Shown piece after piece: positions 17,378 through 60,390 of a DNA stretch of 64,000 nucleotides. Every line of letters begins with the position of its first letter. Position 1 is the first letter of the stretch. A program made the translations under genes and the position numbers. The DNA comes from Candidatus Saccharimonadota bacterium (lineage in GTDB: Bacteria; Patescibacteriota; Saccharimonadia; Saccharimonadales; JACDBH01): positions 128,995 through 192,994 of the forward strand of contig JACDBH010000004.1 in NCBI GenBank assembly GCA_013694995.1, given 5' to 3'. The notes below the pieces were generated by a model, which was not told where the DNA came from, did not search any database, and saw nothing but the letters and a program-made list of their open reading frames with translations.

Positions 17378-17408
17378 TTTATATGGTGGGCGAAAGAGGA
17401 CTTGAACC
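17378..17408 (-). repeat. 31-bp perfect direct repeat of the tRNA-Leu(CAG) 3' end plus trailer
   Basis: TTTATATGGTGGGCGAAAGAGGACTTGAACC is identical at 17378-17408 and 17534-17564. No matching 5' acceptor strand is present, so this copy is a fragment. Confidence 0.85.
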
Positions 17409-17539
17409 CGAAGAAGCCCAGTGGGCTTCTGAGTTCACGCTAGTTAAGCGTCTGTTTAGCATAGTGTTCAAAAGCTGTATATATACATTCTATTGTTTAG
17501 CGCTAAGGTACAATGTCCTATTTGTTCAGCAAGTTTATA

Positions 17540-19681: not shown

Positions 19682-19783
19682 AAGCTTTAAGAAACTATAG
19701 CAGATAAATATGAGGCAGGCGAGACAGGACCTGTCTATGTTCCTAATTCCAATAAGTTACTACTGGTGCGCGAGAGAGGCTTG

Positions 19784-19870
19784 CTCACGTTCCGCGAGCC
19801 CAGAACTTTCATGCGTTGAACCAGTTCAACCCTGGAAGGTTCTCTTGCAAAATGCCACTGGCATTTCTCA
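19784..19870 (-). ncRNA. 87-nt conserved tRNA-fused element, copy A
   Basis: Shares sequence and compensatory hairpin changes with 22505-22591 (+) and 33747-33832 (-). Begins TGAG and ends GGAACGTGAG. No ORF. Confidence 0.5.
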
Positions 19871-19935
19871 CCTATCGGTTCAAGTTCTCCGGCACCAAAA
19901 CAACAAACCGACCTAAAGAGGCCGGATAGTTGTTT

Positions 19936-20019
19936 TGGTGCGCGAGAGAGGACTTGAACCTCCACGCCTTGCGGCACTTGCCCCTCAGACAAGCGTGTCT
20001 ACCATTCCACCACTCGCGC
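19936..20019 (-). tRNA. tRNA-Leu(GAG), type II, CCA encoded
   Basis: Acceptor GCGCGAG/CTCGCGC, anticodon arm CTTGT-CTGAGGG-GCAAG, T arm GGAGG-TTCAAGT-CCTCT. TATAAT about 22 nt upstream. Confidence 0.85.
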
Positions 20020-20298
20020 GTTTGTAAAGCCATAAAATTATAACATCGCAGGGGTATAATAAAAACATAAGAAGAGAGGGTGATGAGGGACTCGCCTCGC
20101 TGTCAAATCAAAATAGGGACTCGCATGTTGATATATAAATAAAACCTTGCAAGCAAGTATTATTTGCATCCCTGATAAATCAGGGTGCCATAGGAAAACA
20201 TGAACAGCCACTGTCTGTTCATACCCGCCGACCCTAGGCGTCGGCAGTACGAGTCCATACACCAAATTAAAAACCGGCCTTACAGCCGGTGCTTAATT

Positions 20299-21970: not shown

Positions 21971-22070
21971 TTTGAAAAAGTGAAAGGAGATGACTTGGTG
22001 AAGTTACTAATGATACCGGTCAAACTTGTTTTGCCGGTGACATAGTAACTGCACCATTACACATCGACGC
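21971..22070 (+). promoter_or_regulatory. conserved pre-tRNA leader module, copy 1 (59-nt hairpin 21997-22055)
   Basis: Same architecture as 22388-22479, 40525-40618 and 60010-60101. Helices covary, loop TCAAACTTGTTTTG, and ATTACACATCGACGC abuts the tRNA. Confidence 0.7.
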
Positions 22071-22146: not shown

Positions 22147-22185
22147 AATAAAAACCCCACCCTCCGTGGGGTTTTTATTTGGTGG
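22141..22185 (+). terminator. rho-independent terminator whose 20-bp stem includes the tRNA-Phe CCACCA end
   Basis: CCACCAAATAAAAACCCCAC-CCTCC-GTGGGGTTTTTATTTGGTGG is a perfect inverted repeat with a T-run. Confidence 0.75.
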
Positions 22186-22317
22186 TACTCACAACTAGAA
22201 TATGCCGAAGGCAGTTCGCTAATTGCACGATTAGTGCAATTATATGCAGAACCCTAGAAATCAATCCTTTGAAAAATAGATTTCTAGGAGTGAAGCTATA
22301 TTCTGGGAGGGTATAAC

Positions 22318-22346: not shown

Positions 22347-22387
22347 CCTCCCTGTTCTTATACCAAATTTGCGAGAGAATTCGCGAA

Positions 22388-22479
22388 TTTGAGAGGAGAC
22401 GGCTTGGCGATATTGCCAGGATTGCCGAGCAAACTTGTTTTGGCGGTAATACGGCAAAAACGCCATCACACGTCGACGA
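22388..22479 (+). promoter_or_regulatory. conserved pre-tRNA leader module, copy 2 (59-nt hairpin 22406-22464)
   Basis: TTTGAGAGGAGA..GGCTT, a three-segment hairpin with loop AGCAAACTTGTTTTGG, then ATCACACGTCGACGA abutting tRNA-Gly nt 1. Confidence 0.7.
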
Positions 22480-22504
22480 GCGGGTGTAGCTCAGTTGTTT
22501 AGAG
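22480..22504 (+). pseudogene. 5' fragment (nt 1-25) of tRNA-Gly(GCC), truncated by element copy B
   Basis: GCGGGTGTAGCTCAGTTGTTTAGAG is identical to 22662-22686. A decayed anticodon arm follows at 22592-22613. Confidence 0.7.
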
Positions 22505-22591
22505 TGAGGCCCGCTTGTGGCGGGCCGCAAGGCAAACTTCTGATGAAAACTTGTTTTCAATCATGAAGTTGCGGGGTCGCGGGAACGTGAC
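22505..22591 (+). ncRNA. 87-nt conserved tRNA-fused element, copy B
   Basis: TGAG-GCCCGC/GCGGGC hairpin-CGCAAGG-CTTC...GAAG helix-GTTGCGGGGTCGCGGGAACGTGAC. Homologous to copies A and C. Confidence 0.5.
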
Positions 22592-22661
22592 CTTACTTGC
22601 CAGGCCAAGGAAGCTTTCGTAAGTAACATGATGTACCTTACAATACGAACGAACCAAACAT

Positions 22662-22738
22662 GCGGGTGTAGCTCAGTTGTTTAGAGCGCTTCCTTGCCAA
22701 GGAAGAGGTCGAGAGTTAGAGTCTCTTCACCCGCACCA
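22662..22738 (+). tRNA. tRNA-Gly(GCC), CCA encoded, unusual D loop/T loop
   Basis: Acceptor GCGGGTG/CACCCGC, anticodon arm CTTCC-TTGCCAA-GGAAG, D loop AGTTGTTTA (no GG), T arm GAGAG-TTAGAGT-CTCTT. Confidence 0.85.
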
Positions 22739-24272
22739 AATGGGACTTATCTGTAATGGATAGGTCTTTTTTATTGCCCGCCAATCTGATGAGCTCGCTT
22801 ATTTCGGGGGTGTAAACATTTTTGTTGGCATCCAGCCTAAAACCAGCAGGGAAAACGATTTGTTTAAACCTCAACCTGTTTTCATGTGGTGTCAGGGGGT
22901 CTAGGAACTTTTGGCTCGTGTCACCCACAAAGCCAAAGGCAAACTTTAAGAACCGTTCGTAGTCATCCTCGGCTTTACGAGTGAGCCTGTGCAGTTGGTC
23001 TTCAATGTCTTCAGCTTCCTGTTTTCGTTTAGCTATGTTTGTAAGTATGTCGGACTTAATAGCGGCATTCTCGGGGTCTGTGGCTGCTTCAACCTGTTGG
23101 CTAATACTCTCCTGTAGGCTGGCTAGCTTGTGTCGTAGACGTACAGCCTCTTGCTGGTTCTCGCTCTCACGGCGTTTCCAGACAATATCAAGTGCTTTTG
23201 TGAGGTCAGATACACCAGCATCGGTAATAGGGTTGTTCCTAAGCTGCTTAGTAATTTTATCGTGCATTTCGCCACGGGCTAAGGCGCGCTTACAGGCACG
23301 GCACCTGTACTTTTCGTATATCTTAGGGCTTTTCCCGTTCGTTATGTCCACGCCTACAATGCGGTTGTACTGTTTACCCTCACAAACATCACAGTGAATT
23401 ATGTTGTTGAGGGGGTACTTAGGATTGCCGTTTTTGCGGGGACCAGTTTGGTTTTTCTGCTTCCCTCCAAATATACGCAACAGTTCATGGTGCTGTTCAA
23501 GGGTGATAAGCGGTTCGTGCAGCCCGTTAAGGTTATGGACTTTAACTTGTTTATCAATTGCAACACCGCCAGCGTAATAGATGTCGGTGGCTATCTTACG
23601 AAACTTGTCCATTTTATACAGGGAATGTCCTCTCATGAACTCGCTACTGTTAAGGTTTATCAAGCCCTGGGTTGGCGTGACCCGCTTGGTGACTATATCA
23701 AGCAATACCTTCCTTAGAGCCTGCCCACGCACAGGGTGAGGCTTGTGGATGCCACGTTCATCACCTCGCATGTAGCCTGGCTTAGGGCAAAACGTGTAGC
23801 GACCCTCTTGCAGGGCTTTTGTTTGACCGTTAATTGACTTACGTTGCCGTTCCTCGTTGCTACCTTCAGCAGATAGGTACTTGGTAAACTTGAGTAGCTT
23901 GGCTGCAAGGTCACCTTTGTTTAGCTCAGCGTCTGAGGCGTACCAGACTGTTACCCCTAACTGGCGAAAAGTGACTTCAAAAAACGCAGCTTCATCAATT
24001 GACCGCATAAATCTATCTGGTTCGTCTACAATAATGTACTTAATGCGCTTATCTTTTTTGCAGCGTACTATCATTTGGTTTAGGTCTTTACGGTCTACGT
24101 TCGTACCCCGCTTGCTTGAGACGCTGCCAGACCACCAGCAGTCATCAGGTATCATTACGCCTAATTCATTAGCCGCTTTTAATACAACTTCTCTCTGACG
24201 ATTAAGACTGTTATTCTCCAGTTGCTCGGTACTAGAGACTCTGCACAGTGCTATGGCGAGATGCTTAGGCAT
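22716..24272 (-). CDS. large serine recombinase (integrase type)
   Basis: N-terminal resolvase catalytic block AIALCRVSSTEQ...SL.RQ, a recombinase domain, the Cys cluster CDVC..//..CRAC (zinc ribbon), and a C-terminal coiled coil. 518 aa. Confidence 0.9.
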   Translation of the reverse strand: MPKHLAIALCRVSSTEQLENNSLNRQREVVLKAANELGVMIPDDCWWSGSVSSKRGTNVDRKDLNQMIVRCKKDKRIKYIIVDEPDRFMRSIDEAAFFEVTFRQLGVTVWYASDAELNKGDLAAKLLKFTKYLSAEGSNEERQRKSINGQTKALQEGRYTFCPKPGYMRGDERGIHKPHPVRGQALRKVLLDIVTKRVTPTQGLINLNSSEFMRGHSLYKMDKFRKIATDIYYAGGVAIDKQVKVHNLNGLHEPLITLEQHHELLRIFGGKQKNQTGPRKNGNPKYPLNNIIHCDVCEGKQYNRIVGVDITNGKSPKIYEKYRCRACKRALARGEMHDKITKQLRNNPITDAGVSDLTKALDIVWKRRESENQQEAVRLRHKLASLQESISQQVEAATDPENAAIKSDILTNIAKRKQEAEDIEDQLHRLTRKAEDDYERFLKFAFGFVGDTSQKFLDPLTPHENRLRFKQIVFPAGFRLDANKNVYTPEISELIRLAGNKKDLSITDKSHLVRVKRL

Positions 24273-24517: not shown

Positions 24518-24866
24518 TGGAGCGTTTCTGCTCCAGGAAAATAAAAAAGCCCTGGAGTCTTACCCACTTCCAGGGACGTGTCAGCTACATTTACTTTGAT
24601 GGGGCTGTTGAAGTTATTATACCACTATTTGCCAGACACAATCTAGGTAGTGATACAGAGGTGATATAATTGCAACAAGTGGTAAATCCACTCAGACCTA
24701 AACCACAGCTTTAGCAGTGGCATGGTTGATAAAACCTACGTAAATGCAATCCCGTCATTGGGTATCTATTTACGTAGGTCATAACTGGAAACGGTTGTGG
24801 CGGCTTCGGTCGCGTCTCAGTGGCGGGTTTTTATTTTGACCGCTGCTTATAACAAGGAGCATCGTA

Positions 24867-26649: not shown

Positions 26650-27210
26650 TTAGTCAGCTATTTTTTGGGCTTGGCTACCTTGTACTTCGCCAAGTTCGCC
26701 TGGAGTCCCTGGTGTATCTGCTTTGGGGTTTTGCCCTTCGTTGAAATGAGGGTGATTAGTCGTTTCATAAGTCTGATTATACTCTCCAGTGGTGTAATGG
26801 GGTCTGTAAGTTATCACCTCAGGCTCACTACCAACCGTGATAACTACAGTCTGCTGTTGCTGAGTAATATCTACTTGAGTGCGTAGCATACCGTAGTGTT
26901 TCATCATCAGCTCAATAGCTTTTAGCCTTGCCGAAGGACGCATGTCAGTATCCTCTATGAAGGTTTTGAGTGTTGCTAATATCCTCTCGGGTGTAAAGTG
27001 GCGCGCGTTAGTAGCCTCGTACTGTCTTAACCAGCCTGGCTTCGTTCTGGATAGCTCTCGTGCTGTGTGGTGACTAAAGCCACTGGTAATAGCAGATTGA
27101 TAGCAGTTGCCAAAGGACGGGCTTTTGGGATTAAAGTAGCAATCAATAAACCTCTGCTGCCTAGGATTATTTATTACTGACGATACGTTTAGCAATCGGT
27201 TCGTAGCCAT
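26650..27210 (-). CDS. phage terminase small subunit-like DNA-binding protein
   Basis: N-terminus PRQQRFIDCYF.....FGNCYQSAITSGFSHHTARE fits the Terminase_2 HTH pattern (Q..F..EY....NAT.AA..AGYS..TA). Confidence 0.5.
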   Translation of the reverse strand: MATNRLLNVSSVINNPRQQRFIDCYFNPKSPSFGNCYQSAITSGFSHHTARELSRTKPGWLRQYEATNARHFTPERILATLKTFIEDTDMRPSARLKAIELMMKHYGMLRTQVDITQQQQTVVITVGSEPEVITYRPHYTTGEYNQTYETTNHPHFNEGQNPKADTPGTPGELGEVQGSQAQKIAD

Positions 27211-33724: not shown

Positions 33725-33886
33725 TGGTGCGGGTTGAAGAGACTCTCCCACGTTCCGCGGGCCCGAAACTTCATCTTTACAGGCTAGTTTGTAAGAGAAG
33801 ATTTCCTTGCGAATTGCCACCGGCAATTCTCACTCTCGACCTCGTCCTTGGCAAGGATGCGCTCTAAACAACTGAGCTAAACCCGC
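33725..33886 (-). tRNA. tRNA-Gly(GCC)-like gene interrupted in the T loop by the 86-nt element (intron-like, or a pseudogene)
   Basis: The 54 nt at 33886-33833 match tRNA-Gly through the T-stem 5' strand. The 22 nt at 33746-33725 are AGAGTCTCTTCAACCCGCACCA. TATAAT at 33908-33903. Confidence 0.5.
33747..33832 (-). ncRNA. 86-nt conserved tRNA-fused element, copy C
   Basis: TGAG-AATTGCC/GGCAATT hairpin-CGCAAGG-CTTC...GAAG-GTTTCGGGCCCGCGGAACGTGGG. Homologous to copies A and B. Confidence 0.5.
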
Positions 33887-33922
33887 ATACTAACAGATTG
33901 AGATTATAGCGGAATTTGGGAT

Positions 33923-40469: not shown

Positions 40470-40524
40470 AACTGGGTCCTCGGCTAATTATGCAAACCAG
40501 GCAACTTGTTTGCTGTTTAGCGTA

Positions 40525-40618
40525 TTTAAGAAGAGAGGGCTTGGTGAGGTTGCAAATAATGCCACACAAACTTGTTTTGATGGCAGTATGGCAACATCAC
40601 CATTACACCTTAACGACA
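40525..40618 (+). promoter_or_regulatory. conserved pre-tRNA leader module, copy 3 (59-nt hairpin 40543-40601)
   Basis: TTTAAGAAGAGAGGGCTT, hairpin GGTG..TTGC..TGCCA-loop CACAAACTTGTTTTGA-TGGCA..GCAA..CACC, then ATTACACCTTAACGACA. Confidence 0.7.
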
Positions 40619-40685
40619 GGGCGCCTTGGCCGAGAAGTTAGGCAGCGGTCTGCAAAACCGCGTAGACGGGAGCGTTACCCGTAGG
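40619..40685 (+). pseudogene. orphan 5' two-thirds of a type II tRNA with anticodon loop CTGCAAA (GCA); no T arm or 3' acceptor strand
   Basis: GGGCGCC-TT-GGCCGAGAAGTTAGGC-A-GCGGT-CTGCAAA-ACCGC plus a long variable arm ACGGG/CCCGT. Downstream sequence cannot form a T arm or pair with GGGCGCC. Confidence 0.55.
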
Positions 40686-40788
40686 TGCCTCCAGCTTGAA
40701 TTTGTACCTCGTTTTTATGTAAAGTGCTTTATAGCACTTTACTTTCAAACTCGGACAATTTCTACGTTTTCCATTACACGTCGACGAA

Positions 40789-59867: not shown

Positions 59868-60009
59868 ATACTCATTCTAACTGCTATAGTTATCATAAAA
59901 AAACGAAATACCTAACATTCGTACATTAATAAACCTGTTAAAATATGCCCCCATCTGTTAAAATTGTCCCGAAAGTCATTATTTACAAATTCGCGAGAGG
60001 AATCGCAAA

Positions 60010-60101
60010 TTTGAGTGGGGAAGGCTTGCTGAGGTTGCTACTTTTGCCGAGTAAATTTATTTTGTCGGCAAATATGTAACCGCAGCATCACACTTCGACG
60101 A
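60010..60101 (+). promoter_or_regulatory. conserved pre-tRNA leader module, copy 4 (59-nt hairpin 60028-60086)
   Basis: TTTGAGTGGGGAAGGCTT, hairpin GCTG..GTTGC..TTGCCGA-loop GTAAATTTATTTTG-TCGGCAA..GTAAC..CAGC, then ATCACACTTCGACGA. Confidence 0.7.
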
Positions 60102-60207: not shown

Positions 60208-60390
60208 TTGTTCGTGACAGAGTTTGTGCGTACGAGAATGTCCAGTGGGACATTCCCCGACCCGTAGCCCTAAACCAATTGGATTTGAGGTGGCTTTCGA
60301 ACTTAATTTTAATTTGCTTGTCAGGCTAATCTTTCTATAAAATAGAATACACAAAATGACATCTAATAAGCTGAAACTTTTTACTATAGG

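Follow-up and report, generated by a model that had tools for sequence, protein, structure and literature searches.

The window, as the whole stretch of 64,000 nt analysed here is called, contains a full-length tRNA-Gly(GCC)-like gene that is interrupted in its T loop by 86 nt. A sequence-only reading of the same DNA had left two options for this locus, a pseudogene made by a tRNA-targeting element or a gene in need of unconventional processing, and the question is which of the two applies and what the inserted sequence is. Saccharibacteria (TM7) are common epibiotic bacteria, human-associated and environmental, with tiny genomes in which non-essential DNA is expected to be scarce.

Anatomy of the split tRNA-Gly(GCC) locus

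Read on the minus strand, the locus consists of a 5' part of the tRNA, the 86-nt insert (designated E) and a 3' part of the tRNA, exactly as previously described (Table 1). The 5' part comprises the acceptor 5' strand, the D arm, the anticodon arm, the variable loop and the T-stem 5' strand GAGAG up to G53; the 3' part comprises A56-T60, the T-stem 3' strand, an extra C, the acceptor 3' strand AACCCGC and ACCA. The flanks align with an intact tRNA-Gly(GCC) approximately 11 kb away, the functional paralogue, as a 61-nt inverted repeat of 93% identity, and mapping on this copy places the insertion in the T loop as proposed, with T54-T55 (TT) exchanged for the insert (junction GAG[TT]AGA). The exact insert sequence is unique within the window. 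An identical tRNA/insert junction is present in the Logan assembly of SRR11719867 and in an NCBI MAG contig (GCA_020063845.1, Candidatus Saccharibacteria); since the Logan assembly is independent, the insertion is real and an assembly artefact is ruled out.

Features of an active gene and of a decaying one, which the sequence-only reading had listed, were found side by side. The locus keeps a TATAAT box of its own, a complete paired acceptor stem, in which the change G7 to T is compensated by an A (pair T7:A66), and the CCA end. No good -35 box accompanies the TATAAT, and the promoter scan called no full sigma-70 site there. The anticodon stem carries the mismatch A28.C42, and removal of the insert leaves a short T loop without T54-T55 and an extra C before the acceptor strand. 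ARAGORN with intron options had been proposed as a check for a split gene, and it called no gene at the native locus, with or without these options and also at lowered thresholds; the Rfam tRNA score was 18.5 bits (threshold 29). With E swapped for TT in silico, ARAGORN called a 78-nt tRNA-Gly(gcc), still with A28.C42 and with the extra C between T stem and acceptor stem. The native locus thus presents neither a cloverleaf accepted by the tRNA finder, nor a 7-nt T loop with U54 U55 C56, nor a T stem joined to the acceptor stem without an additional base.

The locus is flanked by two surface-protein modules, each consisting of a small LPXTG protein and a giant protein. The modules, defined from ORFs, the repeats D1, D4, D5, D7 and D8, and Pfam matches, bear out the position assigned to the locus earlier and are diverged from each other. 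A JGI metagenome scan for the full-length Gly+E arrangement (tRNA-Gly 5' part joined to E, T loop) returned two chance matches in coding DNA, and for the 192-aa protein encoded next to the locus a synteny test found no homologue. Judged by these results, the locus looks specific to its lineage.

Table 1. Positions of the split tRNA gene, of E copies and E debris, and of neighbouring features in the window
Feature	Position	Strand	Evidence and remarks
Full-length tRNA-Gly(GCC)-like gene with T-loop interruption	33725-33886	-	sequence; alignment to intact copy
5' part	33833-33886	-	GCGGG...GTCGAGAG, 54 nt of tRNA-Gly(GCC)
E copy 1 (insert, 33832-33747 as read)	33747-33832	-	R1 match 33746-33833, 93.7 bits, E-value 2e-18; fold z = -2.7
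3' part	33725-33746	-	AGAGTCTCTTCAACCCGCACCA
TATAAT (33908-33903 as read)	33903-33908	-	17 nt upstream of G1 of split tRNA-Gly
Intact tRNA-Gly(GCC), functional paralogue	22662-22738	+	ARAGORN; Rfam 70 bits
E copy 2	22505-22591	+	R1 match 22504-22592, 98.5 bits; fold z = -5.5; junction GAG[CG]CTT
tRNA-Gly 5' fragment (nt 1-24) bearing E copy 2	22480-22504	+	alignment
Anticodon-arm remnant after E copy 2	22592-22614	+	CTTACTTGCCAGGCCAAGGAAGC, conserved across genomes
E copy 3, in partial T arm	19784-19870	-	R1 match 19783-19871, 76.9 bits, E-value 9e-15
Duplicated tRNA-Leu(GAG) 3' fragment, C56 to CCA, after E copy 3	19764-19783	-	sequence
Degenerate antisense tRNA-Leu T-arm copy, between terminator and E copy 3	19877-19896	-	significant in alignment test
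Intact tRNA-Leu(GAG)	19936-20019		
Decayed E downstream of tRNA-Val(TAC), then tRNA-Val 3' fragment	20119-20224	-	R1 15.4 bits; sequence
E hairpin 1 remnant fused to duplicated tRNA-Leu(CAG) 3' fragment	17384-17430	-	by eye; repeat D6
E hairpin 1 remnant downstream of tRNA-Phe	22196-22219	+	by eye
E hairpin 1 remnant downstream of tRNA-Gln	60233-60255	+	by eye
D2 copies	21971-22070, 22380-22479, 40517-40619, 60002-60101	+	3' motif alone at ~40770-40788
Large serine recombinase ORF	22716-24272	-	ends within 3' end of intact tRNA-Gly(GCC)
LOOT RNA (RF03000)	24695-24813	+	75 bits; just past recombinase gene
Weak small-terminase-like ORF	26650-27210	-	Pfam

Further copies of E in the window

The copy in the split gene, whose hairpin 2 has two non-canonical pairs at its apex, is joined in the window by another two intact copies and by four or more decayed ones. 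Copy 2 replaces C25-G26 of a truncated tRNA-Gly copy located 70 nt upstream of the intact gene, and the same layout of tRNA-Gly fragment and E was found at loci L003, L007, L010, L061, L067, L088, L101 and L117. Copy 3, absent from the sequence-only reading, lies downstream of the intact tRNA-Leu(GAG); an antisense T arm as at this copy was also significant for tRNA-Phe in the window. Taken together, E or its debris is borne on one side by six of the nine intact tRNA genes in the 64 kb, with the split tRNA-Gly as one further E, and cassettes of a partial tRNA copy with E or its remnants at such a share of the tRNA genes point to unknown RNA biology. The window copies are about 62% alike (one pair measured), so there is no sign of recent movement of E in this genome.

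Structure and distribution of E

Copies of E were collected with a sequence pattern from the shared 3' end, with which the GTDB species genomes were scanned. At least 118 stretches matched this pattern, of which one, in Pedobacter, was a chance match and the rest carry E, and E was found at no fewer than 117 genome loci besides the window locus, nearly all labelled Candidatus Saccharibacteria or Saccharimonadales. Because the pattern fixed the last 24 nt of E, their invariance reflects in part how the copies were ascertained; hairpins 1 and 2 lie outside the pattern. A covariance model (R1) gave 115 matches in 100 loci, tandem arrays among them.

Alignment of 114 copies, among the matches listed, showed E (~86 nt) to be a three-hairpin RNA with 31 pairs, 20 of them with compensatory changes. 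In these sequences 98% of the paired cells were occupied by pairs, compared to 82% after shuffling and 25-44% in slid registers; double-sided changes numbered 490 (shuffled, 108; slid registers, at most 63), and the covariation score was 0.428 (shuffled, 0.128; slid registers, at most 0.083). Nucleotide 1 of E (U, variant C) covaries with an internal A (or G) and consequently belongs to E, not to the tRNA as T54. The host T stem closes the three hairpins into a four-way junction, again with covariation, and nearly all copies are read on the tRNA sense strand. Nearest-neighbour clustering was weak, both by genome (7/114) and by tRNA type (6/114), among the matches listed. In the CAZNIK genome, two copies at tRNA-Met and tRNA-Pro are 98% identical and their left flank is co-converted. 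For the E copies in the leader of tRNA-Gly, the structure is kept by compensatory changes in at least nine genomes, though the spacers no longer align.

No Rfam 15 family matched E, either in the gathering scans or, for two window copies, in scans at E-value ≤10, and no description of E was found in the literature. The pattern gave 0 matches in IMG/VR, so E is not a phage feature.

A diverged subfamily, found with the model, occurs at L037 4039-4312 (-), L009 1275-1364 (-) and L024 6157-6245 (-), often in tandem with canonical copies. Its fold is kept, including the G.U pair in hairpin 3, in which GCG-GAA-CGU is changed to GCC-GAA-GGU in a compensatory manner, and its GAAGTT motif is altered; with this subfamily, the E family is wider than the search pattern. 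At L091 172-252 (-), a deletion joins the CCGCAAGGC variable arm of a tRNA-Leu copy straight to the CGCAAGG junction of E, a fusion that demonstrates recombination via this short common sequence. Locus L019 (JAYVTZ010000005.1), binned as Burkholderiaceae, holds E in a tRNA-Pro-like fragment together with a 531-nt class A RNase P RNA, and this contig is probably mis-binned Saccharibacteria. At L013 5812-6120, L048, L055 and L005, E sits in T-arm-like hairpins without other tRNA parts, preceded by the conserved GCCGAGCTTTAGGGGGAG and a hairpin; these may represent another unannotated RNA that hosts E.

Genomic context and junctions of E

Among the matches listed, almost every E has an intact tRNA on the same strand at a distance of 40-100 nt, and the fragment carrying E matches this adjacent tRNA in 55 mappable cases. 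In the downstream arrangement (50 cases), the order is tRNA, palindromic terminator, antisense T-arm copy, T-stem 5' strand, E, and the rest of the T loop with the tRNA 3' end, after which the same terminator often recurs. The antisense T-arm copy is degenerate; it was significant in 38 of the 50 cases by local alignment against shuffles and is enriched relative to tRNAs without E. In RNAduplex analysis of the antisense arms, the shuffled control was as high as the real sequences. In the upstream arrangement (at least 34 cases), a promoter comes first, then the 5' part of the tRNA, which runs to one or another loop, then E with a short further stretch of tRNA, a TATAAT-containing spacer and finally the intact tRNA.

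Where both flanks could be placed on the adjacent intact tRNA (55 cases among the matches listed), E replaces exactly two nucleotides without exception. Position -1 of the junction is G in 55/55; at position -2, G occurs 46 times, A 8 times and C once; and position +1 is usually C, so that the commonest form is GG-NN-C. The split copy of the window (GAG[TT]AGA) conforms to this rule. Most copies occupy T-loop positions 54-55, others 53-54 (Gln, Tyr), 25-26 (Gly, Phe, Ser), the anticodon loop (Pro, Leu), the variable loop (Arg) or the D loop (Glu), which amounts to at least six tRNA positions overall, within loops or at the edges of stems. At L105, E lies inside an antisense tRNA-Phe fragment at a GG-GA-C site, indicating that the sequence motif counts more than the polarity of the tRNA.

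No protein family was enriched within 3.5 kb of 120 E copies, and no integrase, transposase or reverse transcriptase emerged; the highest-ranking cluster came from a spurious ORF that spans E, and the best real cluster reached 8/120. This bears on the suggestion that the split copy marks a site, or the scar, of recombination, where the adjacent large serine recombinase would integrate or invert the 11-kb segment with E as incidental cargo. The 61-nt inverted repeat between 22662-22738 and 33886-33725, the recombinase ORF ending within the 3' end of the intact tRNA-Gly, and the weak small-terminase-like ORF and surface-protein genes inside the segment are in line with it. Against these stand the occurrence of E at well over 100 tRNA loci without recombinase enrichment and the lack of an island bounded by direct repeats of the tRNA 3' end, and neither the structure of E nor the two-nucleotide rule is accounted for, which leaves this suggestion barely credible.

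Fate of the interrupted tRNA

In-silico excision was performed with 99 boundary combinations at 114 loci. Among the matches listed, a whole credible tRNA resulted at the window locus only; 109 loci failed and 4 gave doubtful products without an acceptor stem. Since the carriers are mostly truncated tRNA copies near an intact gene of the same identity, splicing need not be invoked. Of the two options named at the outset, the evidence favours the pseudogene made by a tRNA-targeting element; the processing option suffers from the two missing T-loop nucleotides, the residual defects and the fragmentary carriers of 109 of the 114 copies.

The same observations make it improbable that E is an intron or an rRNA-like intervening sequence, whose removal would yield a working tRNA-Gly, religated or in two pieces. 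The presence of two tRNA halves with a promoter, the ARAGORN call after in-silico removal and the replacement of loop nucleotides, as with rRNA intervening sequences, would suit such a role, and tRNA introns are abundant in Patescibacteria (PMC13011429). However, with T54 and T55 missing the canonical T loop is not restored by any excision, the A.C mismatch and the extra base persist, and the 109 fragments (among the matches listed) are unable to yield a tRNA. Furthermore, no Rfam intron or ribozyme matched at E-value ≤10, 86 nt is far below the size of a group I or group II catalytic core, and an intact paralogue exists at 22662-22738.

The verdict of a dead gene, as the sequence-only reading had worded one outcome, fits the tRNA part, and not necessarily the whole locus, because the E module itself appears to be under selection as an RNA.

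Origin and role of E

The locus is best explained as a redundant, decaying tRNA-Gly(GCC) paralogue that hosts a structured RNA module which nests in tRNAs and propagates itself, an explanation to which we assign a probability of about 0.6. E is an autonomously folding RNA of ~86 nt that has replaced nt 54-55 in a spare tRNA-Gly(GCC), and it would be copied within a genome between tRNA-derived sequences, into tRNA-derived hairpins. Each insertion trades two nucleotides after a G, mostly at GG-NN-C, and destroys the carrier tRNA, so that surviving copies occupy dispensable carriers: usually a truncated tRNA duplicate beside an intact gene and, in the window, a spare full-length gene in which decay has begun. 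The split locus is probably still transcribed from the tRNA promoter, presumably without a functional tRNA-Gly being produced.

That E propagates is suggested by the several distinct sites used under one precise rule, the decayed copies, the tandem arrays and the 98% pair in CAZNIK. Decay of the carrier is indicated by the A.C mismatch, the extra base and the loss of TT, together with the intact tRNA-Gly(GCC) in the same window. Ectopic gene conversion via T-arm homology can explain the spread of E among T loops, but not to the other sites. Several observations run counter to this explanation. Neither an insertion enzyme nor a protein family enriched beside E was found, and the window copies are only about 62% alike (one pair measured). 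A purely selfish element is at odds with the compensatory conservation at apparently orthologous loci (tRNA-Gly leader, at least nine genomes), which suggests selection at host level. Moreover, the promoter, acceptor stem and CCA are retained at the split locus, and a chimera of tRNA and E might be the RNA that the locus is meant to make.

These last points would suit a dedicated gene for E. In that case E would be an abundant host ncRNA made from tRNA operons, for example a scaffold for protein binding or regulation; the tRNA body, or an arm of it, would act as a natural scaffold that permits processing (RNase P, CCA end) and confers stability, and the family would evolve by birth and death. 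The strong purifying selection on structure with compensatory changes at the tRNA-Gly leader in at least nine genomes, the hairpin 3 G.U pair retained even in the diverged subfamily, the tRNA orientation of nearly all copies, the T stem that closes E as a covarying four-way junction, and TATAAT, paired acceptor stem and CCA at the split locus all argue for such a gene. Nevertheless, decay or deletion has affected many copies (four or more in the window), and RNase P cannot act on most carriers, in which one acceptor strand is missing. In addition, that exactly two nucleotides are exchanged at many tRNA positions unrelated to each other resembles an insertion process and not gene design, and no partner protein was found in the neighbour analysis of 120 copies; a dedicated gene is therefore considered unlikely. 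Propagation and function of E are, however, not mutually exclusive.

More tentatively, and with less than even odds, E may constitute a new class of tRNA-specific mobile structured RNA with an insertion chemistry of its own, directed to G-NN sites in tRNA loops or at stem edges, with replacement of two nucleotides. The element might enter by a reaction at the RNA level whose product is then copied into DNA, or through a trans-acting enzyme, and the attached sense and antisense tRNA arms might be part of the targeting or of the biology of the element. If true, tRNA loci of Saccharibacteria would be shaped by an unseen RNA element that is also kept as an expressed folded RNA. More broadly, the E cassettes could represent either a new kind of selfish RNA or DNA element that inserts by a precise rule, or an abundant ncRNA of a new kind on a tRNA-arm scaffold. 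For annotation, E cassettes are misleading in both cases, as they give rise to pseudo-tRNAs and missed or 'split' genes and can be mistaken for integration sites.

Comparison with known systems

In its way of working, E would seem to come closest to rRNA intervening sequences, or to the tRNA introns that transpose in Thermoproteales. Intervening sequences are extended stem-loops in bacterial 23S and 16S rRNA that are cut out by RNase III, the fragmented rRNA remaining functional. Like them, E is structured extra RNA that replaces a few hairpin-loop nucleotides (two, in tRNA hairpins) and shows a sporadic distribution and variable copy number; unlike them, it has a conserved three-hairpin junction, and its hosts are mostly truncated, non-functional tRNA-derived sequences. 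The mobile tRNA introns of the archaeal Thermoproteales lie at non-canonical positions and are flanked by a bulge-helix-bulge motif; EndA and a ligase remove them by exact splicing, so that their host genes are functional. They share with E the occurrence of related short inserts at several positions (D, anticodon and T arms) of many tRNAs, which suggests transposition, whereas E deletes two nucleotides, offers no solution for exact excision and is bacterial. A protein-spliced tRNA intron of archaeal or eukaryal type was rejected, as no excision boundary restores the T loop (junction sequences inspected by eye).

The group I intron core comprises P3-P9, and the insertion site in bacterial tRNAs is the anticodon loop. 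E was rejected as a group I intron, being 86 nt long, located in the T loop instead of the anticodon loop and without an Rfam intron match at E-value ≤10. A group II or Euglena-type group III mini-intron was likewise rejected, since hairpin 3 has no bulged A, such as the branch point of domain V/VI would be, and two exon nucleotides are missing, at odds with exact exon ligation; the likeness of the E boundaries (G|UGAG...GAC) to group II ends (5' GUGYG, 3' AY) is merely superficial. The tRNA group I introns of Patescibacteria are anticodon-loop self-splicing ribozymes whose precise splicing was shown experimentally, and group II introns are reported absent from this phylum (PMC13011429). E resembles these group I introns in interrupting tRNA genes of the same phylum and in having been overlooked by standard annotation, and differs from them in lacking a group I core (no Rfam match) and in residing mainly in the T loop.

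With MITEs, REP/REPIN and Correia elements, E has in common that it is short, multi-copy, non-coding, structured and gene-less, with intact and decayed copies; it differs in being confined to tRNA-derived hairpins, in its fixed orientation and in its RNA-type covariation. A MITE or IS-derived repeat was rejected, as the ends (UGAG.../...GUGAC) form no inverted repeat and two target nucleotides are lost without a target-site duplication. E cassettes also resemble the att-type duplications of tRNA 3' ends that integrative elements leave (attL/attR), in which the 3' part of an intact tRNA recurs behind it as a direct repeat, but only 60-100 nt separate the repeats, no integrase is associated, E interrupts the second repeat and the space between the two holds an antisense T-arm copy. 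A tRNA-targeting integrative element was rejected because no neighbouring protein family, integrases included, was enriched (best real cluster 8/120) and because of this short distance between the repeats. On inspection, hammerhead, hairpin, HDV-like, twister, pistol and hatchet ribozymes, tmRNA, permuted and Nanoarchaeum-type split tRNAs, T-box leaders, TnpB/IscB guide RNAs and the IS110 bridge RNA were dismissed, either because the defining core is absent or because the flanks are present on both sides of E.

Neighbouring features in the window

The 11-kb segment from the recombinase gene to the inverted tRNA-Gly copy, which includes one surface-protein module, may represent either an integrated element or a segment capable of inversion. 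A second element, D2, is a covarying leader of ~100 nt that ends in CCAT(C/T)ACACNTCGACGA and abuts the mature tRNA 5' end; it precedes tRNA-Phe, the tRNA-Gly fragment, tRNA-Cys, tRNA-Leu(TAA) (3' motif only) and tRNA-Gln. Its copies have fold z-scores of -2.4 to -5.2 and no Rfam match, and similar leaders were seen at L082 and L101.

The intact tRNA-Gly(GCC) of the window, as well as those of L007 and L010, is without G18-G19 and C56. The T loop reads TTAGAGT in the window and TTTGAGT in L007, and a D-loop base changes to match, so that the 19-56 tertiary pair appears to covary. The terminators after tRNAs (22147-22185 (+) and most loci of the downstream arrangement) are long palindromes with the layout CCACCA-A tract-hairpin-T tract-TGGTGG; as they include the CCA end, pairing is possible between the 3' end of a tRNA and the trailer behind it. 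tRNA-Cys(GCA) at 40620-40693 (+) has a low tRNA score (41 bits), and its variable region seems unusually long.
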